From a virus, in IMG/VR virus record IMGVR_UViG_3300031722_000011, positions 39,444 to 103,443 of that record: a DNA stretch of 64,000 nt; one strand, given 5' to 3'. The number at the start of each line of letters is the position of its first letter. Positions within the stretch are counted from its first letter, which is position 1. This document shows positions 3 to 40,602 of this stretch, in pieces. The notes below the pieces were generated by a model. The model was not told the DNA's origin. It saw only the letters and a list, made by a program, of their open reading frames with translations, and made no database searches. Both the position numbers and the translations under genes were made by a program.

Positions 3-1100
3 GTATTTGATGATTTAGAGTATATTTATCCGTATGGAAACTATAAAGGGAAAATGGTAGGAGTGTTTGATTTATCATATATTGATACATTAACAAATGA
101 ACAGAAGAAAGCCTTATATAATAATTTAACCCCCTTAGTAACAGAAAATATGTATAAAAAATGGAAGAATGAAAACAATGCTGATAAGAAAAAAGAATTA
201 CAGTTAATTGTATTACCTCCAGATAGGTCATTAGTTGCTAGAACTAGAGTATTATCACATAATCAAAGATTAGGATTGCCAATGGGAACTCAAGCAATTT
301 TTGATTTACAACATAAACAAAAGATGAAAGATTTAGAACGTTCTATGGCTGACAAGATTATAAGAGCTATAGCCGTAGTAAAAATGAGAGATAAAGATGA
401 CAATGATGTTAAAGTAAAAGAATCGGTGCAAAGAAAAGTATTTGATAAAATAAAGAAAGCATTAGAGAAAAATACAAGTGGGAAGAATGGATTAACTTGT
501 ATATCAATGCCATCTTTTGCTGACTTTTCATATCCTGAGTTTAAAGGTGCTGATGATATATTAGATTCTGGTAAGTATGACAGTGTAAATAATGATATTA
601 CTACTGGTACAAGCATATCCTCAACATTAGCAAATGGAACAGGGGGCAATTACGCTAGTGCAAATCTAAATCTTGATATGATTTATCAAAAAATAGGTAC
701 AATGTTAGAACAAATTGAAGAAATATATAATCAATTAATTGTTATCATACTAGGACAAAATAAAGGTTCTAATTATTATTTTGAATATGATAAACAAAAG
801 GCACTTACAAAAAAAGAAAAATTAGATATTTATAAAGGTCTATCCGATAAAGGGTTCAGTATTAGACCGATGATTGAATTGATTGGTGGAGATTTTGAAG
901 CATTTATAAATGAAAGTATATATGAAATAGATGATTTAAAATTAAGAGAAAAAATTATCCCACAATTAACATCATTTACGGCTTCAGATACAGATTCAGA
1001 TCAAATAGGAAGACCTACTAATGAAGCTGATACAAATACTAGCACAATCCAAACAAAAGAAACTGATGGAAATTCAAATCCGAAACCTAGCACAACATAA
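3..1100 (+). CDS. Portal protein, C-terminal part (5'-truncated by window edge)
   Basis: Frame is open from nt 3 (VFDDLEYIYPYG...). It lies directly upstream of protease/scaffold and capsid genes and ends in a typical portal tail (QIGRPTNE). SPbeta YonE-like synteny. Confidence 0.7.
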   Translation, partial: VFDDLEYIYPYGNYKGKMVGVFDLSYIDTLTNEQKKALYNNLTPLVTENMYKKWKNENNADKKKELQLIVLPPDRSLVARTRVLSHNQRLGLPMGTQAIFDLQHKQKMKDLERSMADKIIRAIAVVKMRDKDDNDVKVKESVQRKVFDKIKKALEKNTSGKNGLTCISMPSFADFSYPEFKGADDILDSGKYDSVNNDITTGTSISSTLANGTGGNYASANLNLDMIYQKIGTMLEQIEEIYNQLIVIILGQNKGSNYYFEYDKQKALTKKEKLDIYKGLSDKGFSIRPMIELIGGDFEAFINESIYEIDDLKLREKIIPQLTSFTASDTDSDQIGRPTNEADTNTSTIQTKETDGNSNPKPSTT

Positions 1101-9931: not shown

Positions 9932-10384
9932 ATGGCAGATTTTGATAGTATAGAGTCATTTATACGAGAAGCTAAAAAACAAATAGAAAATACAATGAAA
10001 AAGGAGATGTTACCTGCATTAAAAGAAAAGGCACAGGAGATAGTAATAACAAAAATTTACTCTGCTTATACACCTAAAATTTATGAAAGAACAAACGAAT
10101 TAATTGAAGCATTTGAAATAGAATGCAAATGGGAAGGAGATACTTGTTGGGGTATATTAAAAGTAAAAGAAGACTTACATAGTGATAACCCAACATGGAA
10201 AGGTCAAATATATCCACTAGATGAAATCATAAATTATTACTTTGCTGAAGGACATGGATGGGGTGAAGGAACTAATAGACCAGCAGTTGATACTTTAGCA
10301 TTGACCAATGAAGAAATGATTGAAACGGGAGAAGCATTAAGAATAATATATGATGAGTTAAAGAAACATTTCGATATTATATGA
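9932..10384 (+). CDS. Putative tail component (HK97 gp10-like)
   Basis: YERT motif, GHGW...RP segment, size and position. Confidence 0.45.
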   Translation: MADFDSIESFIREAKKQIENTMKKEMLPALKEKAQEIVITKIYSAYTPKIYERTNELIEAFEIECKWEGDTCWGILKVKEDLHSDNPTWKGQIYPLDEIINYYFAEGHGWGEGTNRPAVDTLALTNEEMIETGEALRIIYDELKKHFDII

Positions 10385-10501
10385 AATAACATAAATTGTT
10401 CATTTTAAAAGAAATATTAATCTATATATTGTAGTGTTAATGGAGATGATACTACAATATATAGTGTGTGAAAATAAAATAATAAATTAATATATAAAGT
10501 G

Positions 10502-15920: not shown

Positions 15921-16000
15921 GGAAGAAATAGATGTGGAATAAGGTTCGAAACTTATATTACATTGAACGGGCTATCTCCAATTAGCTTTTCTTCCTTTTT
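15921..16000 (+). ncRNA. Cloverleaf-like structured leader RNA upstream of a GIY-YIG gene
   Basis: Outer stem GGAAGAA/TTCTTCC plus T5, two inner hairpins, promoter TTGATT-16-TATAAT (15885-15912). Confidence 0.6.
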
Positions 16001-16045
16001 ATTAATATTGGAGAAATAAATTAAATTATATTGGAGGAATTTAGG

Positions 16046-17293
16046 ATGAACATAGGTAACTTAGAAGTATATGGAATTATATATAAAGTTGAAAATTTAG
16101 TTAATGGAAAAGTTTATATTGGACAAACTACAGAAGATAAAGGATTTGATGGACGATATTGTAGAAAAGGAGAAGATGTAGAAAGAGTTTATAAACAGAA
16201 TAAAAGATTAAAAGAGTTAGGATTAAGTTATAATAAACATTTATTAAGTTCTATAGAAAAGTATGGTTTTGATAATTTTAAAGTAGATAAAGAACTTGAT
16301 TATGCCTTTAGTCGCAATGAATTAAATATAAAAGAACAATGTTGGATAAGTATTTTTAACAGTTTTAATAATGGATATAATAATAATCATGGAGGAGCTG
16401 GGAATTCAGGATATGAAGGGCTAAAAGGAATAGATAATCCTATGAGTAGAGAAGTTGTACAATTATCTTTAGAAGGAATTTTTATAAAAACGTGGGACTG
16501 TATGGAATATGTTTCTCAAGCATTAAATATAAATAAAGCACATATATGTGGAGTATGTAATAATACTTATGGAAGAAAATCAACTGGTGGTTATATGTTT
16601 ATGTATAAAGAAGATTATCAAAAACTAACTAATAAGGATACTATACATTATAATAACGAAATTGGAGAATATAACAAAGAACCAGTTATGCAATTAGATT
16701 TGAACGGTAAATTTATTCAAGAATTTAACTCTATTTCAGAAGCTAGTAGATTAGTAAATGGAGCAACAATAGCAAAGATATCTAAGTGTTGTAAAAAAGA
16801 GAGAAAGTCGAATGGTGGTTTCATATGGATATATAAAAAAGATTATTCTGATAACAACACGTATTCATGGAATGGCATACACAACGGAAAATCAAAAGAA
16901 GTTATACAATTATCTCTGAATGGTGATTTTATAAGTGAATATTCTTCTATTACTGAAGCTTCTAAATTTGTAAAAAATACATCAGTAAGTAAAATATCAA
17001 AATGTTGTAATGGAAATTCAAAATCTCATGCAAGTTATATATGGGTATTTAAAAATGATTATAATAAAGACATCAATTATAAGTTAGATACAAAACATAC
17101 TGGAAAATCTAAAAAAATAATTAAATTATCATTGAATGGAGATTTTTTAAATGAATATGATTCAGCAAAAGAAGCCGAAGAAAGTAATAATATATCAAGA
17201 AAAGCGATAACTAAATGTTGTAGTGGAAAAAGTAAAACATCAGGAGGATATATTTGGAAATATAAAGAAGATTATAATAAAATAGCAATATAA
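16046..17293 (+). CDS. Free-standing GIY-YIG homing endonuclease with four NUMOD1-type repeats
   Basis: YGIIYKVENLVNGKVYIGQT...NGYN, plus four repeats of V.QL.L.G.FI...ISKCC...GGYIW.YK.DY. Confidence 0.9.
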   Translation: MNIGNLEVYGIIYKVENLVNGKVYIGQTTEDKGFDGRYCRKGEDVERVYKQNKRLKELGLSYNKHLLSSIEKYGFDNFKVDKELDYAFSRNELNIKEQCWISIFNSFNNGYNNNHGGAGNSGYEGLKGIDNPMSREVVQLSLEGIFIKTWDCMEYVSQALNINKAHICGVCNNTYGRKSTGGYMFMYKEDYQKLTNKDTIHYNNEIGEYNKEPVMQLDLNGKFIQEFNSISEASRLVNGATIAKISKCCKKERKSNGGFIWIYKKDYSDNNTYSWNGIHNGKSKEVIQLSLNGDFISEYSSITEASKFVKNTSVSKISKCCNGNSKSHASYIWVFKNDYNKDINYKLDTKHTGKSKKIIKLSLNGDFLNEYDSAKEAEESNNISRKAITKCCSGKSKTSGGYIWKYKEDYNKIAI

Positions 17294-26083: not shown

Positions 26084-28771
26084 TTGATTAATAAGATAAA
26101 ATTAGGGACACTTTTTATGAATGGTGTGCAAGTTAAATTTAATCAAAGTACACCTACACAATTTATTAATGGTGCAACATTAGAATTAAAAACTAGTAGT
26201 TCAGATTTAAATTATCAAATAGAATGGGTTAGTTTCACAGATGGAAGTAAAAATATATTGATTTCTGATAGAAATGTGCTATCTAACATTTCATATAATG
26301 ACTTATCAATTCAAGGTTTAATAAGTGGAAATACTATTGTAACATTGCAGAATATAAAATATAAAGTTCTTTTAATGGCTTCTGATGAATATGATAAGTA
26401 TTTGTTAAATTCTATAAACCTAAATACATTATTAACTCCTACAACTTTAGATGAAACAAATGGTGGTTATTCGGATAGTACAATATCATCTAGTGATTCT
26501 AATAATTTATGGAATTGGTGGAAAACTCCTTGTTTAACTCAAACATTGACAAGCAGTAATAATATAATACGCGGTGGAAATACAATTAATGCTTCAAGTA
26601 CAATAAATGTAAATACAAAATCTAACTGGCGTTTAATGTTATCTCAATATAATACACCACCTACTATATCAGACTCAGATACTACATTAGGTAGTTATAC
26701 ATCTAATATAGTAAAGGCTTATACAATTACTGATCCTGATGATGATTTGTTTAAAATTGTAGAAATGATTGATTCGAATACAAATATTAGAACATTAGAA
26801 AATCAATCTTCAAAAAATGAATTTACTTTTACACTATCAACTGAACAATGGAAGAGTTTAAGTGCAGGCGTTCATACAATAAATATAGTGGTTACAGATA
26901 GTTATGGAAATATTGCTACAAGAAATTGGTTATTCAACAAAGTTGTAGATTCAACTGTGGGTACATCATCAGCTTTAACAAGACCTGTAATAGTGACACC
27001 TAGTAATTCACTATCTTTATCCCCTTTTGATGCTACATTTGATGAAATTATCTCTTTTACAGTAACAGGTGGAGATATGGTTTATGCTAATGAAATAAAT
27101 ATTATAGATAATTCAAATTCATCTATAATTGTTTATAATAAAAAAGTTGAGTCCTTTGATTTTGAAAACATTATACCAAAGAATACATTAATTAATGGAA
27201 AGACATACCAAATTAAAATACGTACTTATAATACAAGTGGACAATATAGTGCATGGAGTGATACTGTTTTGGTAAAAGCACTAACCACACCACAATTATT
27301 AGTAACAACTATTGTAGATGATATGATACAAACGCCTAATCCTGTAATGCAAGCTACGTATTATCAAGCAGATAATGATAGTGTATATAGTTATGTATTC
27401 AATCTATTAAAAGATGGGGTACAAGTAGATTCTAGTAATGTTTTATTAGACAAAGCTTTGCAATACCAATTTTCTAACTTAGATAATAAGGCAAATTACG
27501 TGATAGAATTAAAAATTCAAACTGCAAGTGGAATGATAGCGACAATACAGAAAAGCTTTTACTGTATATATTTACAATCTAAATTACCCGCAGTAATGAC
27601 TTTAATCAATGATAATGCTACAGGTAGTGTTAAAATAACTACTTATGTCAGACAGATACTTGGAAGAGTATATAGTGGTGATAATGTGACTTATATAGAT
27701 GGTGAGTGGGCAAATCTACATAATTCTACTGTAATTTGGGACTCCGATGGTGCATTTAGGTTAGATGGTGATTGGACTGCTAAAATATGGGCAAGAGACT
27801 TAGAAGATAATGATGTTATGCTTGTGAAATTTACTTTAGATGATGGAAATTATATTCAATTGACTAGATGGGGAAATATGTTCTCATTAACAAAGATAGT
27901 TAATGGAATCAAATTATATGAATTACATAAAACTATAGAAGGTGACATATTATCAACTGACGAATTATATTTCTTTATTCAAAATGATGTAGATTTAGGT
28001 TTAATGAACTTTGATGTAAAGCGAATAACTGACGGAAGAAGCACATGGTTCACTAAAAGTCATACAGAAGATGTAATACCTAGTTATGCTAATATAGATG
28101 GATTTTTAAGCCAATTAGATAGTAAATTTGTTAGTTTATTAAAAGATAAAATTATAGATGGTGAAATAATGAAAGTTCGTATACCTTCTATGAATGATTT
28201 CTCATCTACACCTTCAATAGGAACATCTGCCAAAATAGGTCAATTAATAATAGGACAAGCTATACTTGGCGATTCATCAACTAATGAATTTAATGCAATG
28301 TTATCAAATGGCAATTATTTTACAAGAGATATTTCAATAGATGATAGCAATAAGTTAATAGCTATTAATAATATTGGAAAGAAATATAATGCCTTTCCAA
28401 ATGACAAAACAATAGGAATAAGAATCATGGTAGACATTCCAAGTACAACAAAAGTATCAACCATAAAAGACCGTACCGATGATTGTTATTTTATTACGAC
28501 AAAAATTTTCAATTTATTTGATATACAACAAATATCTAATTTAAAAGTTGGGGATGGAATAAAAAGTAATAGTATCAGATATAAAGAAAATGTCATCAAA
28601 TTTACAATAAATAATATAGATTCAATTAATAATACTATTACTTTAATTAGTGATGTGATTGATATGGGAAAAGAATTTGATGCAAGTGAATCTGTATATA
28701 TAAATGGTAATCCAAATTGGAATACATCAAATTTACAACAATGGCTAAATAGTAATGTAAAAATAGGCTAG
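26084..28771 (+). CDS. Baseplate/tail protein with Ig/FN3-like domains
   Basis: GVHTINIVVTD and LINGKTYQIKIRT...YSAWSD motifs; tail module position. Confidence 0.65.
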   Translation: MINKIKLGTLFMNGVQVKFNQSTPTQFINGATLELKTSSSDLNYQIEWVSFTDGSKNILISDRNVLSNISYNDLSIQGLISGNTIVTLQNIKYKVLLMASDEYDKYLLNSINLNTLLTPTTLDETNGGYSDSTISSSDSNNLWNWWKTPCLTQTLTSSNNIIRGGNTINASSTINVNTKSNWRLMLSQYNTPPTISDSDTTLGSYTSNIVKAYTITDPDDDLFKIVEMIDSNTNIRTLENQSSKNEFTFTLSTEQWKSLSAGVHTINIVVTDSYGNIATRNWLFNKVVDSTVGTSSALTRPVIVTPSNSLSLSPFDATFDEIISFTVTGGDMVYANEINIIDNSNSSIIVYNKKVESFDFENIIPKNTLINGKTYQIKIRTYNTSGQYSAWSDTVLVKALTTPQLLVTTIVDDMIQTPNPVMQATYYQADNDSVYSYVFNLLKDGVQVDSSNVLLDKALQYQFSNLDNKANYVIELKIQTASGMIATIQKSFYCIYLQSKLPAVMTLINDNATGSVKITTYVRQILGRVYSGDNVTYIDGEWANLHNSTVIWDSDGAFRLDGDWTAKIWARDLEDNDVMLVKFTLDDGNYIQLTRWGNMFSLTKIVNGIKLYELHKTIEGDILSTDELYFFIQNDVDLGLMNFDVKRITDGRSTWFTKSHTEDVIPSYANIDGFLSQLDSKFVSLLKDKIIDGEIMKVRIPSMNDFSSTPSIGTSAKIGQLIIGQAILGDSSTNEFNAMLSNGNYFTRDISIDDSNKLIAINNIGKKYNAFPNDKTIGIRIMVDIPSTTKVSTIKDRTDDCYFITTKIFNLFDIQQISNLKVGDGIKSNSIRYKENVIKFTINNIDSINNTITLISDVIDMGKEFDASESVYINGNPNWNTSNLQQWLNSNVKIG

Positions 28772-37631: not shown

Positions 37632-37865
37632 TAAAATATATAAAATACCACATAGAATTAAGATTTTACCGTAAGTTATGGTTTTAAGAATAAGGCTATA
37701 GGCTAGGTGTAGAATTTGAATAATTAGACTAGGGATTAATTTCTCTGGTCTTTTTTGTTATGTAGAGATTTATTTTCATAAAGCTTATCAGATATTGGTG
37801 GGTTTTAAAAAATAAAATATAAACAATAATATTGACAATGATACCCTAATAAGGTATTATTATAT

Positions 37866-37939
37866 TAGAAACTAGATAAGGAAGTCATGAGCCTTATTGA
37901 AAAGGAGATTTTGTTAACCGTCTCCGAGTTTCTATTTTT
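37866..37939 (+). ncRNA. Cloverleaf-like structured leader RNA upstream of a GIY-YIG gene
   Basis: Outer stem TAGAAACT/AGTTTCTA plus T5, two inner hairpins, promoter TTGACA(37832)-17-TATTAT. Confidence 0.65.
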
Positions 37940-37983
37940 ATACAATGGTTAACAAATAAATTTAAAAAGTGAGGTTAACGAAA

Positions 37984-38742
37984 ATGAACATTAACAAATT
38001 AGAAACAGGAATGGTACTAAAAAGTTATAGAGAGTTATGTAAGGTTTTGGATTGGGAAATTGCAAGTGGCAACGCAAAAAAGAAACAACTAAGAATACTT
38101 AGAGAATTGTGTAAATATGAAAAGCGAGGGAATACTTTCATTATAAAAGAAATATATGATGTTAAGAATGTATGTTTGGATATGAGAGGAAAAGCCATTG
38201 GAATAGATAGTAATAGTTGGAAAGAATATGAGCAACTTAAAATTTCTTATGAGGAAAGAGATAATATAGGAATTTACTATATTATAAAAGACAAGGATGT
38301 TTATATTGGTTCTACTACATGGGGATTCAGAAATAGATTTTTACAACATTATCATGGATATGACGAATTAATGAAACATACCTATGAACTATTACAAGAT
38401 AGTGGTGAATTTTATATACTTCATGATATGACAGGTATAGAAGATGAAGTATTGATAAGGCAAGTGGAAGATAAATATATACAATATTTTAAAAATAATA
38501 CTGATTATAATGTTATTAATAAAAAAGAAAATGCCTACAGTTTAACAGAAAAGAAGATAAAAAATAAAAAGATAAAATACAGAATACTTAAACTAAAAAT
38601 TAAAGAAGATAAATATGAACAAGCTATGCAGTTATTAATTAACAATGGATTATTAGATTTAGAAGAAGAAAATACTCCTACTAATAATTATATTTTAAAT
38701 GGTATGCTTGGAAATTTTGATATAAACAATATACCATTTTAG
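37984..38742 (+). CDS. GIY-YIG domain protein with N-terminal putative DNA-binding domain
   Basis: GIYYIIKDKDVYIGST...FRNRFLQH...E...N. The N-terminal ~60 aa is paralogous to the next ORF. Confidence 0.75.
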   Translation: MNINKLETGMVLKSYRELCKVLDWEIASGNAKKKQLRILRELCKYEKRGNTFIIKEIYDVKNVCLDMRGKAIGIDSNSWKEYEQLKISYEERDNIGIYYIIKDKDVYIGSTTWGFRNRFLQHYHGYDELMKHTYELLQDSGEFYILHDMTGIEDEVLIRQVEDKYIQYFKNNTDYNVINKKENAYSLTEKKIKNKKIKYRILKLKIKEDKYEQAMQLLINNGLLDLEEENTPTNNYILNGMLGNFDINNIPF

Positions 38743-38818
38743 AAAATTAAATAAGCAAGATTAAGAGATTAGATTTAATTCTAGTCTCTTTTTTGATGTG
38801 GAAAATTATTAGAAGGAG

Positions 38819-39928
38819 ATGTTAATAATGAATATAGATAAATTAATAGAAGGTTTAGTGGTTAAAAATTATAAACAAATGTGTGAGTTACTTAGCCAAA
38901 CTGTAAAAGGTGGAGATAGTAAAAAGGCACAATTAAAAGAATGGTCTACATATTTCAACTATGAAAAGGATGGAAATAAATTTGTAATTAAAGAAATTTA
39001 TGACGCACAACTAGAAAAAGAAGATGGTAGAAAAATATTAAGCATAGATGACAAAAGATATAATAGTGTATATGGAGATGATATCCAACAATTATTATTG
39101 CTTTTAATTGCTTCTTCTTCTGAAGATGATGAAATAATATTACCAGCCACAGTATTATTGAATAAATTATCTATGATTAATAAAAATTACTCTTTGGCTA
39201 GAAAGAATCAAGATAAGTTATCTGAAATATTGGAAATAGATGAAAAATACATAAATGAATTCTATGGAACAACACATAGTAATTTAAAAGCTAGTTTAGA
39301 ATCTTCTATGAATTCATTAAGAAGACGAGCATTAATTACTTGGACTACTGTTAGAATGGTATGTAAGAAAGTATTAGTAACAAATTATAATGAACTTGAT
39401 GAAATAGTTATTGATGATATGGATAAAATTTCTTATTCAATAAAAGAAGAATATAGTATTGCAGATAAAGAACAAGATCTTATAATTCTTGAAGCTGAAA
39501 GATTGACATTAAAAGACATGGAATATGAAAGTATAGGACAAGTTATAAGAGATGGTAAAATTAAAGATTTTTATACTTCTGTTTATAAAATGATACAATC
39601 TAAAGCAAATATAAAATATTATTTCAATGCCTATCAAATTAAGTTTAATAAAGATTTAATCATTGATGCTTTAGAAATGTATGGTGAAGACTTAAATCAT
39701 ATAAAAATTCAATTGAATAATAAAGTGAAAGAAAAGTTATTTGATAATGCTATTAACAGACAAGAAAAAGTAGAAAATGAAATAAAAGATATAATAGGAG
39801 TTCCTAAATTAAAGAAAAATCAAAAGTTGAGAATTGAAAAAGATTATTTAGATAATATTCAATTATTGATTAATACTGTTATACATATGACTTCTAAAGA
39901 TATAAGAAACAAATTAAAAGTTGACTAA
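38819..39928 (+). CDS. Putative DNA-binding / replication-initiator-like protein
   Basis: Shares its N-domain with 37984 (KNYKQMCELL...KKAQL...YEKDGNKFVIKEIYD). Followed by inverted repeats and a structured region. Function is inferred. Confidence 0.35.
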   Translation: MLIMNIDKLIEGLVVKNYKQMCELLSQTVKGGDSKKAQLKEWSTYFNYEKDGNKFVIKEIYDAQLEKEDGRKILSIDDKRYNSVYGDDIQQLLLLLIASSSEDDEIILPATVLLNKLSMINKNYSLARKNQDKLSEILEIDEKYINEFYGTTHSNLKASLESSMNSLRRRALITWTTVRMVCKKVLVTNYNELDEIVIDDMDKISYSIKEEYSIADKEQDLIILEAERLTLKDMEYESIGQVIRDGKIKDFYTSVYKMIQSKANIKYYFNAYQIKFNKDLIIDALEMYGEDLNHIKIQLNNKVKEKLFDNAINRQEKVENEIKDIIGVPKLKKNQKLRIEKDYLDNIQLLINTVIHMTSKDIRNKLKVD

Positions 39929-40278
39929 CTATCACCCACTATAATAGACAAGGACGATTTTGAATATACGTCCCGTATATAATATATAGTTAGTGATTTA
40001 TAGTCAACTTTTGATAAATTATATTAAACTAATCAAAAGTTGTACATAATTAATAACCTCAATAGAAAAACAAATTAAAGTATCATTTGGATTGTGAGGA
40101 ACGAACAAGACAAGCCTTTGGTTCTTGTGGCTACAAGAATATATATTAACAATCAACAATCAATAGAAGGCTTAGACCAGCCCGAACGTTCCGTTCTCCT
40201 CGGTCTTGTCTGCCAAACGAGTTGGCATCCAAATGATATTTGTCAACTATTTAAAATAAATTATTAAGGAGATTAAAT

Positions 40279-40602
40279 ATGAAAGTTGATAATAAAATGG
40301 GTGTATATATTCTAATAGACAAACAAAGAAGTGATGAAGAAAATATAGTTTATAAAATTGGATTCAGTTCAAAAGTTAGAAATAGAATAAATCAAATTAA
40401 AAAGACGTATTCATTTTTGGGACAAGATAATGAACTTGAGGTATTTACTATTATATATTGTAATCAAGCAAAAAAGTTAGAAGGTCACTTACATACTATG
40501 TTAAAATTTGCAAAGCTGATAGATAAACATGAGTGGTTTAAAAGTAGCTATGAAACATTAAACAATAGGCTTTTTAAAATTTCATTAGCAGATTATAAAT
40601 AA
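40279..40602 (+). CDS. T5orf172/GIY-YIG-like domain protein
   Basis: GVYIL...YKIGFS...RINQI...LEGHLH...EWF. Confidence 0.8.
   Translation: MKVDNKMGVYILIDKQRSDEENIVYKIGFSSKVRNRINQIKKTYSFLGQDNELEVFTIIYCNQAKKLEGHLHTMLKFAKLIDKHEWFKSSYETLNNRLFKISLADYK

Follow-up and report, generated by a model that had tools for sequence, protein, structure and literature searches.

It is clear that bases 37866-37983 of the stretch analysed here belong to a widespread but uncatalogued family of small three-armed leader RNAs that sit in front of selfish DNA-cutting genes in phages. One loop of the RNA matches the ribosome-binding site of its own gene, and therefore probably holds back nuclease production, while another loop is, with one exception seen, self-complementary, so that the RNA probably pairs with a second copy of itself. 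The stretch (the window) comprises 64,000 nucleotides and is the last 64 kb of a 103,443-bp phage record (IMGVR_UViG_3300031722_000011) with 27% G+C. This phage is a relative of Clostridium phage c-st and the SPbeta group; a virion protein is 50% identical to the YonD homologue of Clostridium phages c-st and D-1873, and about 31% identical to SPbeta-group proteins. Positions are those of the window unless given as genome positions, and the features described in the window are on the + strand.

The observation in the original prediction held, as every element that it listed was read directly from the sequence. A SigA-type promoter, with TTGACA at 37832-37837, a 17-nt spacer and TATTAT at 37855-37860, matches the consensus at 11 of 12 positions and is the best promoter-like site in the region. 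It places the predicted transcript start at or just before the outer stem, and most family members carry a -10 box 5-9 nt before this stem. The outer stem P1 is formed by 37866-37873 paired with 37927-37934, and is followed by five T at 37935-37939. Hairpin A (P2, 37875-37898) pairs 37875-37881 with 37892-37898 and has a 10-nt loop (37882-37891), whereas hairpin B (P3, 37904-37925) pairs 37904-37909 with 37920-37925 around the loop 37910-37919. The P3 loop is complementary to two downstream sites. The site T1, at 37947-37956, forms 10 contiguous Watson-Crick pairs with it, while the site T2, at 37973-37983, forms 7 contiguous pairs (37973-37979), then one mismatch and 3 more pairs. T2 overlaps the last two G of the Shine-Dalgarno (SD) sequence GTGAGG (37969-37974) and ends at the ATG at 37984. 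The duplex energies calculated for this copy are -13.5 kcal/mol for T1, -12.9 kcal/mol for T2 and -6.6 kcal/mol for the P2 loop with itself. An intrinsic terminator of the upstream gene, with a 10-bp stem, a 6-nt loop and a T-run, lies at 37726-37757 (37726-37751 as more narrowly delimited) and insulates the cassette from upstream transcription, and a second one at 38763-38796 (more narrowly, 38763-38790) closes it.

The structure was first examined by folding single sequences. RNAfold returns exactly this three-way junction for 37866-37940 (-17.4 kcal/mol, z = -2.15, with 4 of 200 shuffles folding as well). This figure alone is modest, the full leader gives z = -1.13, and its minimum-free-energy fold is a different one, favored by 0.3 kcal/mol. 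Single-sequence folding is therefore weak evidence, and it is the comparative evidence that puts the structure beyond chance.

The gene behind the leader (37984-38742, 252 aa) codes for a divergent GIY-YIG-type endonuclease, and its N-terminal 61 aa resemble the N-terminus of the next gene. The protein itself is not recognised by the Pfam GIY-YIG model PF01541, given that no Pfam family was found at E <= 0.01 for the whole protein, nor at E <= 10 for residues 76-194. It is GIY-YIG only through its motif and its homologues, which were found at E from 1e-54 to 1e-15, carry PF01541 and include one named GIY-YIG nuclease. In an alignment of 18 sequences the columns of the catalytic motifs are invariant (G96, Y98, Y107, I108, G109, R118, H122, E162, and N179). 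A fold of the nuclease predicted without an alignment was too poor to be used (pLDDT 40).

The genome holds four copies of the leader. The sister leader in the same window (15921-16049) has its three-way junction at 15921-15995, the P2 loop word UUCGAA and a P3 loop that pairs with sites at 16007-16014 and 16030-16037 (the SD), and precedes a GIY-YIG/NUMOD1 gene. A scan of the whole genome for long-range stems followed by T-runs found a third copy at genome 26702-26765, before a PD-(D/E)XK-like homing endonuclease, and a fourth copy lies at genome 14139-14206, before a GIY-YIG gene. The original prediction had described the leader studied here as a sequence-unrelated copy of the architecture at 15921, which is wrong. 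These two leaders share the junction words, the U-run, the motif AAATAAATT after T1 and the same family consensus. Hairpin A and the junctions are conserved. Hairpin A of the leader at 37866 and of the copy at 26702 share the same core, and all four copies have AAATAAATT right after T1. The other two copies in the genome and the self-complementary loop of hairpin A had been missed.

A search with a covariance model and a tabulation of the downstream genes had been proposed in advance to probe the prediction, which would have failed if no further instances with loop-target complementarity were found. Such instances were found. An exact-pattern scan for the hairpin-A core in viral contigs returned 28 loci, about 17 of which have the same layout. 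A covariance model built from three of these leaders, all from other phages (R1), scored the leader at 37866 at 56.3 bits. A second model, built from 13 leaders including this one (R2), gave 71 bits (E = 1.4e-14). Further members came from bacterial genomes (Gudongella sp. and Candidatus Colivicinus equi), from whole viral contigs, some of which hold two copies, from a second pattern that leaves the loop free, and from metagenomes. R2 misses the two copies with a divergent hairpin A, so the family is wider than the model, and phage c-st has no R2 hit. In total, 33 distinct members were collected from viral, metagenome and bacterial contigs and aligned to R2. In this alignment 96.0% of cells form standard pairs, 17 of 18 pairs show changes on both sides, and the covariation score is 0.609, against 0.173 in shuffles (0 of 500) and at most 0.158 when the partners are slid. 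The alignment was fitted to the model, which favors the structure; nonetheless, the slid controls and the many pair types in P1 and P3 make the three helices secure.

To evaluate the pairing between loop and targets, the P3 loop and the leader downstream of P1 were extracted automatically, keeping one representative per distinct loop (18 in all). The best plus second-best contiguous Watson-Crick match of a loop to its own leader averages 12.9 nt, against 4.4 nt to foreign leaders, and none of 20,000 random re-pairings of loops and leaders reached the observed mean, the largest being 8.7. The own loop of a leader ranks first in 14 of 18 cases, and the exceptions are close relatives that share a loop core. 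The proximal site lies at -10 to -17 from the start codon, on the SD region, and the distal site at -22 to -40, with a spacing of 10-26 nt between them. T1 pairs at least as well as T2 in 11 of 14 leaders examined. Loop and target sequences therefore change together, with at least 18 different specificities seen, as the original prediction had proposed. That the leaders are orthogonal riboregulators, also proposed, is an inference; cross-pairing between loops and foreign leaders is weak in silico, but expression data were lacking. The core word of the P3 loop of this copy occurs on the coding strand only at T1 and T2 and once inside a gene, and the idea of trans targets at other genes was therefore dropped.

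The P2 loop varies between members, but contains a 6-nt palindrome of the form U-NNNN-A. Six words were seen, namely UCAUGA (this copy, at 37885-37890), UCGCGA, UAGCUA, UAAUUA, UUCGAA (the copy at 15921) and UUGCAA, and they differ from one another by paired changes at mirror positions. All 11 distinct loops in the first set hold one, as do all 11 family-like metagenome hits, compared with 10% of shuffled loops and 6 of 67 non-family hits of the same search pattern. The one exception seen is the copy at genome 14139-14206, which lacks the palindrome. The palindrome is offset from the symmetry axis of the stem, so it is not simply more stem. An intramolecular partner was rejected, because the word occurs only once per leader and has no consistent second copy in the ORF. 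The simplest reading is that the partner is the same loop on a second RNA molecule, forming a kissing dimer. Two other readings were also abandoned. A leader peptide starting at the AUG in the hairpin-A loop is not supported because the frame and stop are not conserved and other loop words have no AUG, and a tRNA T-loop mimic in the copy at 15921 is explained better by the palindrome rule.

The genes scanned downstream of the leaders are almost all nucleases and belong to at least six types, namely GIY-YIG with NUMOD1, classical HNH, NUMOD4/HNH_3, PD-(D/E)XK-like (phrog_4538/9084/559), DUF7487, DUF4379/CapR, and HNH_3/AP2. A further downstream gene looks like a T5orf172 nuclease from its sequence alone and was not scanned. 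A few others had no recognisable nuclease domain (those at the loci L011, L024 and L171 had weak or no matches, and that at L093 is truncated), and one marginal member precedes a DUF1376 gene. The leader at 15921 and a leader in another phage (L155) are about 90% identical from the P3 loop through T1, the spacer and T2, but have a different hairpin A and unrelated nuclease genes. Distant relatives of the nuclease at 37984 in viral contigs have no such leader in front of them by model R2. The leader is therefore a portable module and not an appendage of one protein family. A relative of the downstream gene in another phage (L205) has no nuclease cassette but also different neighbours, and the insertion borders were for this reason not set.

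A second signal lies inside the leader. The motif AAATAAATT (37954-37962), located between T1 and T2, occurs 40 times on the + strand of the genome and 7 times on the - strand, and 19 of the 40 copies end 13-45 nt before an ORF start, where 1.5 are expected. In all four leaders it lies between T1 and T2, 21-24 nt before the ATG, which is the same spacing as before some 15 other genes. It may be a phage-specific promoter, although its activity was not assayed and the position of the motif does not by itself decide whether transcripts that escape repression arise there. If it is a promoter, some nuclease mRNAs would carry T2 without the leader or T1, and only free leader RNA acting in trans could regulate them.

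The most likely role of the leader is antisense-type control of nuclease translation, probably repression, within a self-contained homing-endonuclease cassette made of terminator, own SigA promoter, leader, nuclease gene and terminator. The overall probability of this explanation is placed at about 0.6. The structure, the covariation of the three helices, the complementarity of the loop to its targets and their position, the palindromic P2 loop, the link with nuclease genes and the modular exchange of parts rest directly on the data. Repression, dimer formation and release of a free RNA are inferred from them, and the direction of regulation is not shown. In this view, pairing of the P3 loop at T2 would block 30S binding and keep nuclease synthesis low, which is held with moderate confidence and is in line with the RBS sequestration that controls T-even homing endonucleases (PMC2988022). 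T1 would act either as the high-affinity anchor or as the competing cis site. With less confidence, two leader RNAs would kiss through P2, so that a dimer offers two P3 loops, one holding T1 while the other occupies the weaker T2. With similarly lower confidence, the U-run after P1 would end part of the transcripts and yield a free RNA of about 70 nt able to act in trans on full-length mRNAs. A T-run of 4 or more within 9 nt after P1 occurs in 14 of 25 members and is missing in the other 11, and P1 of this copy is AT-rich, with 8 bp of which only 2 are G-C pairs, closes a junction and is followed by U5. A simple terminator scan did not call it, so these features leave undecided whether it terminates transcription; transcript data were lacking, and the transcript start, termination at the U-run and the level of free RNA were not measured. 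The interpretation in the original prediction, of a programmable riboregulator family for selfish nucleases, is thus partly supported.

The main alternative, considered unlikely, is that the leader acts only in cis as a permissive switch or stabiliser, with the P3 loop normally pairing with the nearer and usually stronger T1 in a pseudoknot that keeps the SD open, while the paired 5' end protects the mRNA from 5' exonucleases. The leader would then allow or boost nuclease synthesis, and T2 complementarity would matter only in a minor off state. The strength of T1, its proximity to the loop, the start of P1 at the predicted transcript start and the 11 of 25 members without a clear U-run, which may never be released, all speak for it. 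Nonetheless, complementarity of T2 to the SD region is kept through at least 18 specificities, which is hard to explain if it has no function, homing endonucleases are typically held down and not boosted (PMC2988022), and the self-complementary P2 loop is left unexplained. It is less likely still that the main output is RNA fate, with loop-target duplexes or the kissing dimer triggering RNase cleavage or premature termination. Two target sites on one transcript recall the P4 CI and P1 c4 RNAs, where pairing leads to termination, and AU-rich single strands flank the sites. However, the duplexes of 5-10 bp are short for RNase III, T2 sits on the SD region and not at a variable place, which points to ribosome access, and Rho-dependent polarity plays a smaller role in Firmicutes.

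A DNA operator bound by the protein irrespective of RNA pairing had been specified beforehand as a finding that would overturn the prediction, and this reading turned out to be very unlikely. In it, the three copies of the word (one inverted, two direct) would be binding sites for the nuclease itself, which would repress its own promoter. In its favor, I-TevI binds an operator that resembles its homing site and represses its own promoter (PMC2988022), and the word GTTAAC in this copy is itself a DNA palindrome. Against it, the same loop and target words precede two unrelated nucleases, GIY-YIG/NUMOD1 and a phrog_4538-type protein, and two unrelated DNA-binding nucleases would not share one operator. 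The orientation is always one inverted copy inside a hairpin loop followed by two direct copies, the helices around it covary as RNA, and the sites lie downstream of the promoter, at the SD. Chance resemblance in AT-rich DNA, which the modest fold z-scores might suggest, is already refuted by the compensatory changes in 33 members, the re-pairing test and the constant position before nuclease genes. A more speculative possibility, doubtful but not excluded, is that the leader is a self-contained, portable RNA timer. Early transcripts would be translatable because their own P3 loop parks on T1, after which terminated free leader RNA would accumulate, dock on the mRNA-borne leader through the palindromic P2 loop and place a second P3 loop on the weak SD site T2. 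Each nuclease would be made in a short burst and then shut off, and both the antisense address (7-10 nt) and the dimer address (6 nt) could be changed independently by evolution, or by an engineer.

No published description of the family was found in literature searches, including one for the hairpin-A word itself. A megablast of the region against GenBank phages gave no match, and a sensitive blastn of the leader gave only chance hits. Rfam 15 gave nothing at the gathering threshold in the window or in 11 loci, and the best hit by E-value, rli59 at E = 0.27, needs a 70-nt deletion and was rejected. The model of the int-alpA motif (RF02996, threshold 35.8 bits), also a small phage-associated candidate RNA of untested function, finds nothing at E <= 10 in the genome, nothing in 37800-38000 and nothing in five leader loci from other phages. 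The C4 antisense RNA model (RF01695, threshold 45 bits) likewise finds nothing in the genome at E <= 10, nor at the gathering threshold in the window.

In function, the closest systems are the RBS-sequestering hairpins of the T-even phage homing-endonuclease genes (I-TevI, I-TevII, I-TevIII, segB, and Aeh1 mobE; PMC2988022), where RNA pairing at the ribosome-binding site is thought to limit or time translation, and where a phage-specific promoter inside the structure yields transcripts that escape repression. Here AAATAAATT lies inside the regulatory region as a promoter-like motif, but its promoter activity is untested. Those are simple local hairpins that contain the SD and have no shared sequence family. 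In the leader studied here, with the junction kept, the SD region is not in a local hairpin but is reached from about 60 nt upstream by the P3 loop, presented by a conserved three-way junction, in a long-range loop-to-strand contact. There is also a second target site and a self-complementary loop, and the module moves between unrelated nuclease genes. In logic, the closest are the c4 RNA of P1/P7 and the CI RNA of P4, small structured RNAs encoded at the head of the operon they control (for the c4 operon context, see PMC8198154). Their loop elements are complementary to more than one site on the same transcript, one of them at a ribosome-binding site, and loops and targets co-vary between related phages, giving different specificities. 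Those RNAs control immunity and anti-repressor genes of Proteobacteria phages, are cut out by RNase P and act through termination, whereas here both targets lie downstream, the cargo is a nuclease gene and the promoter places the transcript start at P1, so that no 5' processing is required, although RNA ends were not mapped. As in kissing-loop sites such as the HIV-1 DIS hairpin, a 6-nt self-complementary word that varies but stays palindromic sits in a loop of 8-10 nt and is preceded by purines, but the context is a bacterial-virus mRNA leader and not a retroviral genome, and dimer formation is inferred from covariation only. Synthetic riboregulators and toehold switches also set translation by a short programmable RNA pairing at the RBS, with specificity changed by swapping a few bases on both partners, but these are engineered, while this is a natural family with a fixed scaffold, two targets and a dimerisation loop.

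Homing endonucleases must be expressed enough to spread but not enough to harm their phage, and outside the T4 group their control is largely unknown. The family would offer an annotation marker for mobile nuclease cassettes, a candidate new Rfam family, and natural, already diversified parts for orthogonal translational control in Gram-positive hosts. The covarying self-complementary loop suggests that RNA dimerisation is part of a bacterial-virus gene switch, which would be unusual. This family would be a common, modular answer to the problem of nuclease control in phages of Firmicutes, with a fixed RNA scaffold in which a few loop bases are rewritten to match the ribosome-binding site of each new gene.

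Downstream of the cassette, a G+C-rich element of about 165 nt is found at window positions 40078-40242 (+), in a genome that has only 27% G+C. This element is closed by a long terminal stem, and its minimum free energy of -48.6 kcal/mol (z = -4.28) was not matched by any of 200 shuffled sequences (0 of 200 fold as well). No match to Rfam was obtained for it at E <= 1. The element lies just upstream of a T5orf172/MUG113 gene (GIY-YIG clan) at 40279-40602. A second structured segment, at window 39920-40008 (+), is an 89-nt near-perfect long hairpin with an outer stem of 8 bp and an MFE of -25 kcal/mol, which is placed directly after the gene ending at 39928 and is followed by a T-run. This hairpin is larger than an ordinary terminator.

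At the protein level, the first 61 residues (window 37984-38166) of the GIY-YIG-type nuclease are 46% identical to the N-terminus (window 38828-39010) of the next gene, which encodes a protein of 369 aa assigned to phrog_36702. This N-terminal domain recurs on many phage proteins, and it may be a shared DNA-binding domain or, alternatively, a trace of how the cassette was inserted. Across the whole genome, the motif AAATAAATT, found in the window for example at 2999, 3576, 10730, 26047, 36919, and 40254, shows a strong strand bias (40 copies against 7). Nineteen copies end 13-45 nt upstream of ORF starts, where 1.5 are expected, and the motif is probably a phage-specific promoter or a 5'-UTR signal.

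Outside the window, at genome positions 10361-10498 (locus L001), an outer stem of 16 bp encloses a branched structure, and one of its loops is complementary to two short repeats just before the start codon of a 266-aa ORF, which was not identified. This arrangement resembles the layout of the leader RNAs found in front of the nuclease genes, but it has a different scaffold. In two loci from Campylobacterota genomes, L057 (2433-2476) and L097 (407-448), the exact hairpin-A sequence of the leader family occurs alone, as a terminator-like hairpin with covarying extra stem pairs and a T-run, and without the outer stem P1 or the hairpin P3 that complete the junction in the family. This may be chance, or it may indicate a reuse of the same hairpin. 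In other phages, group I introns lie within about 1-1.5 kb of family leaders, at 325-1080 (-) in locus L167 and at 10157-10424 (+) in locus L030, while in loci L007 and L022 tRNA gene clusters lie directly upstream. The leaders, therefore, sit in hot spots of mobile elements.
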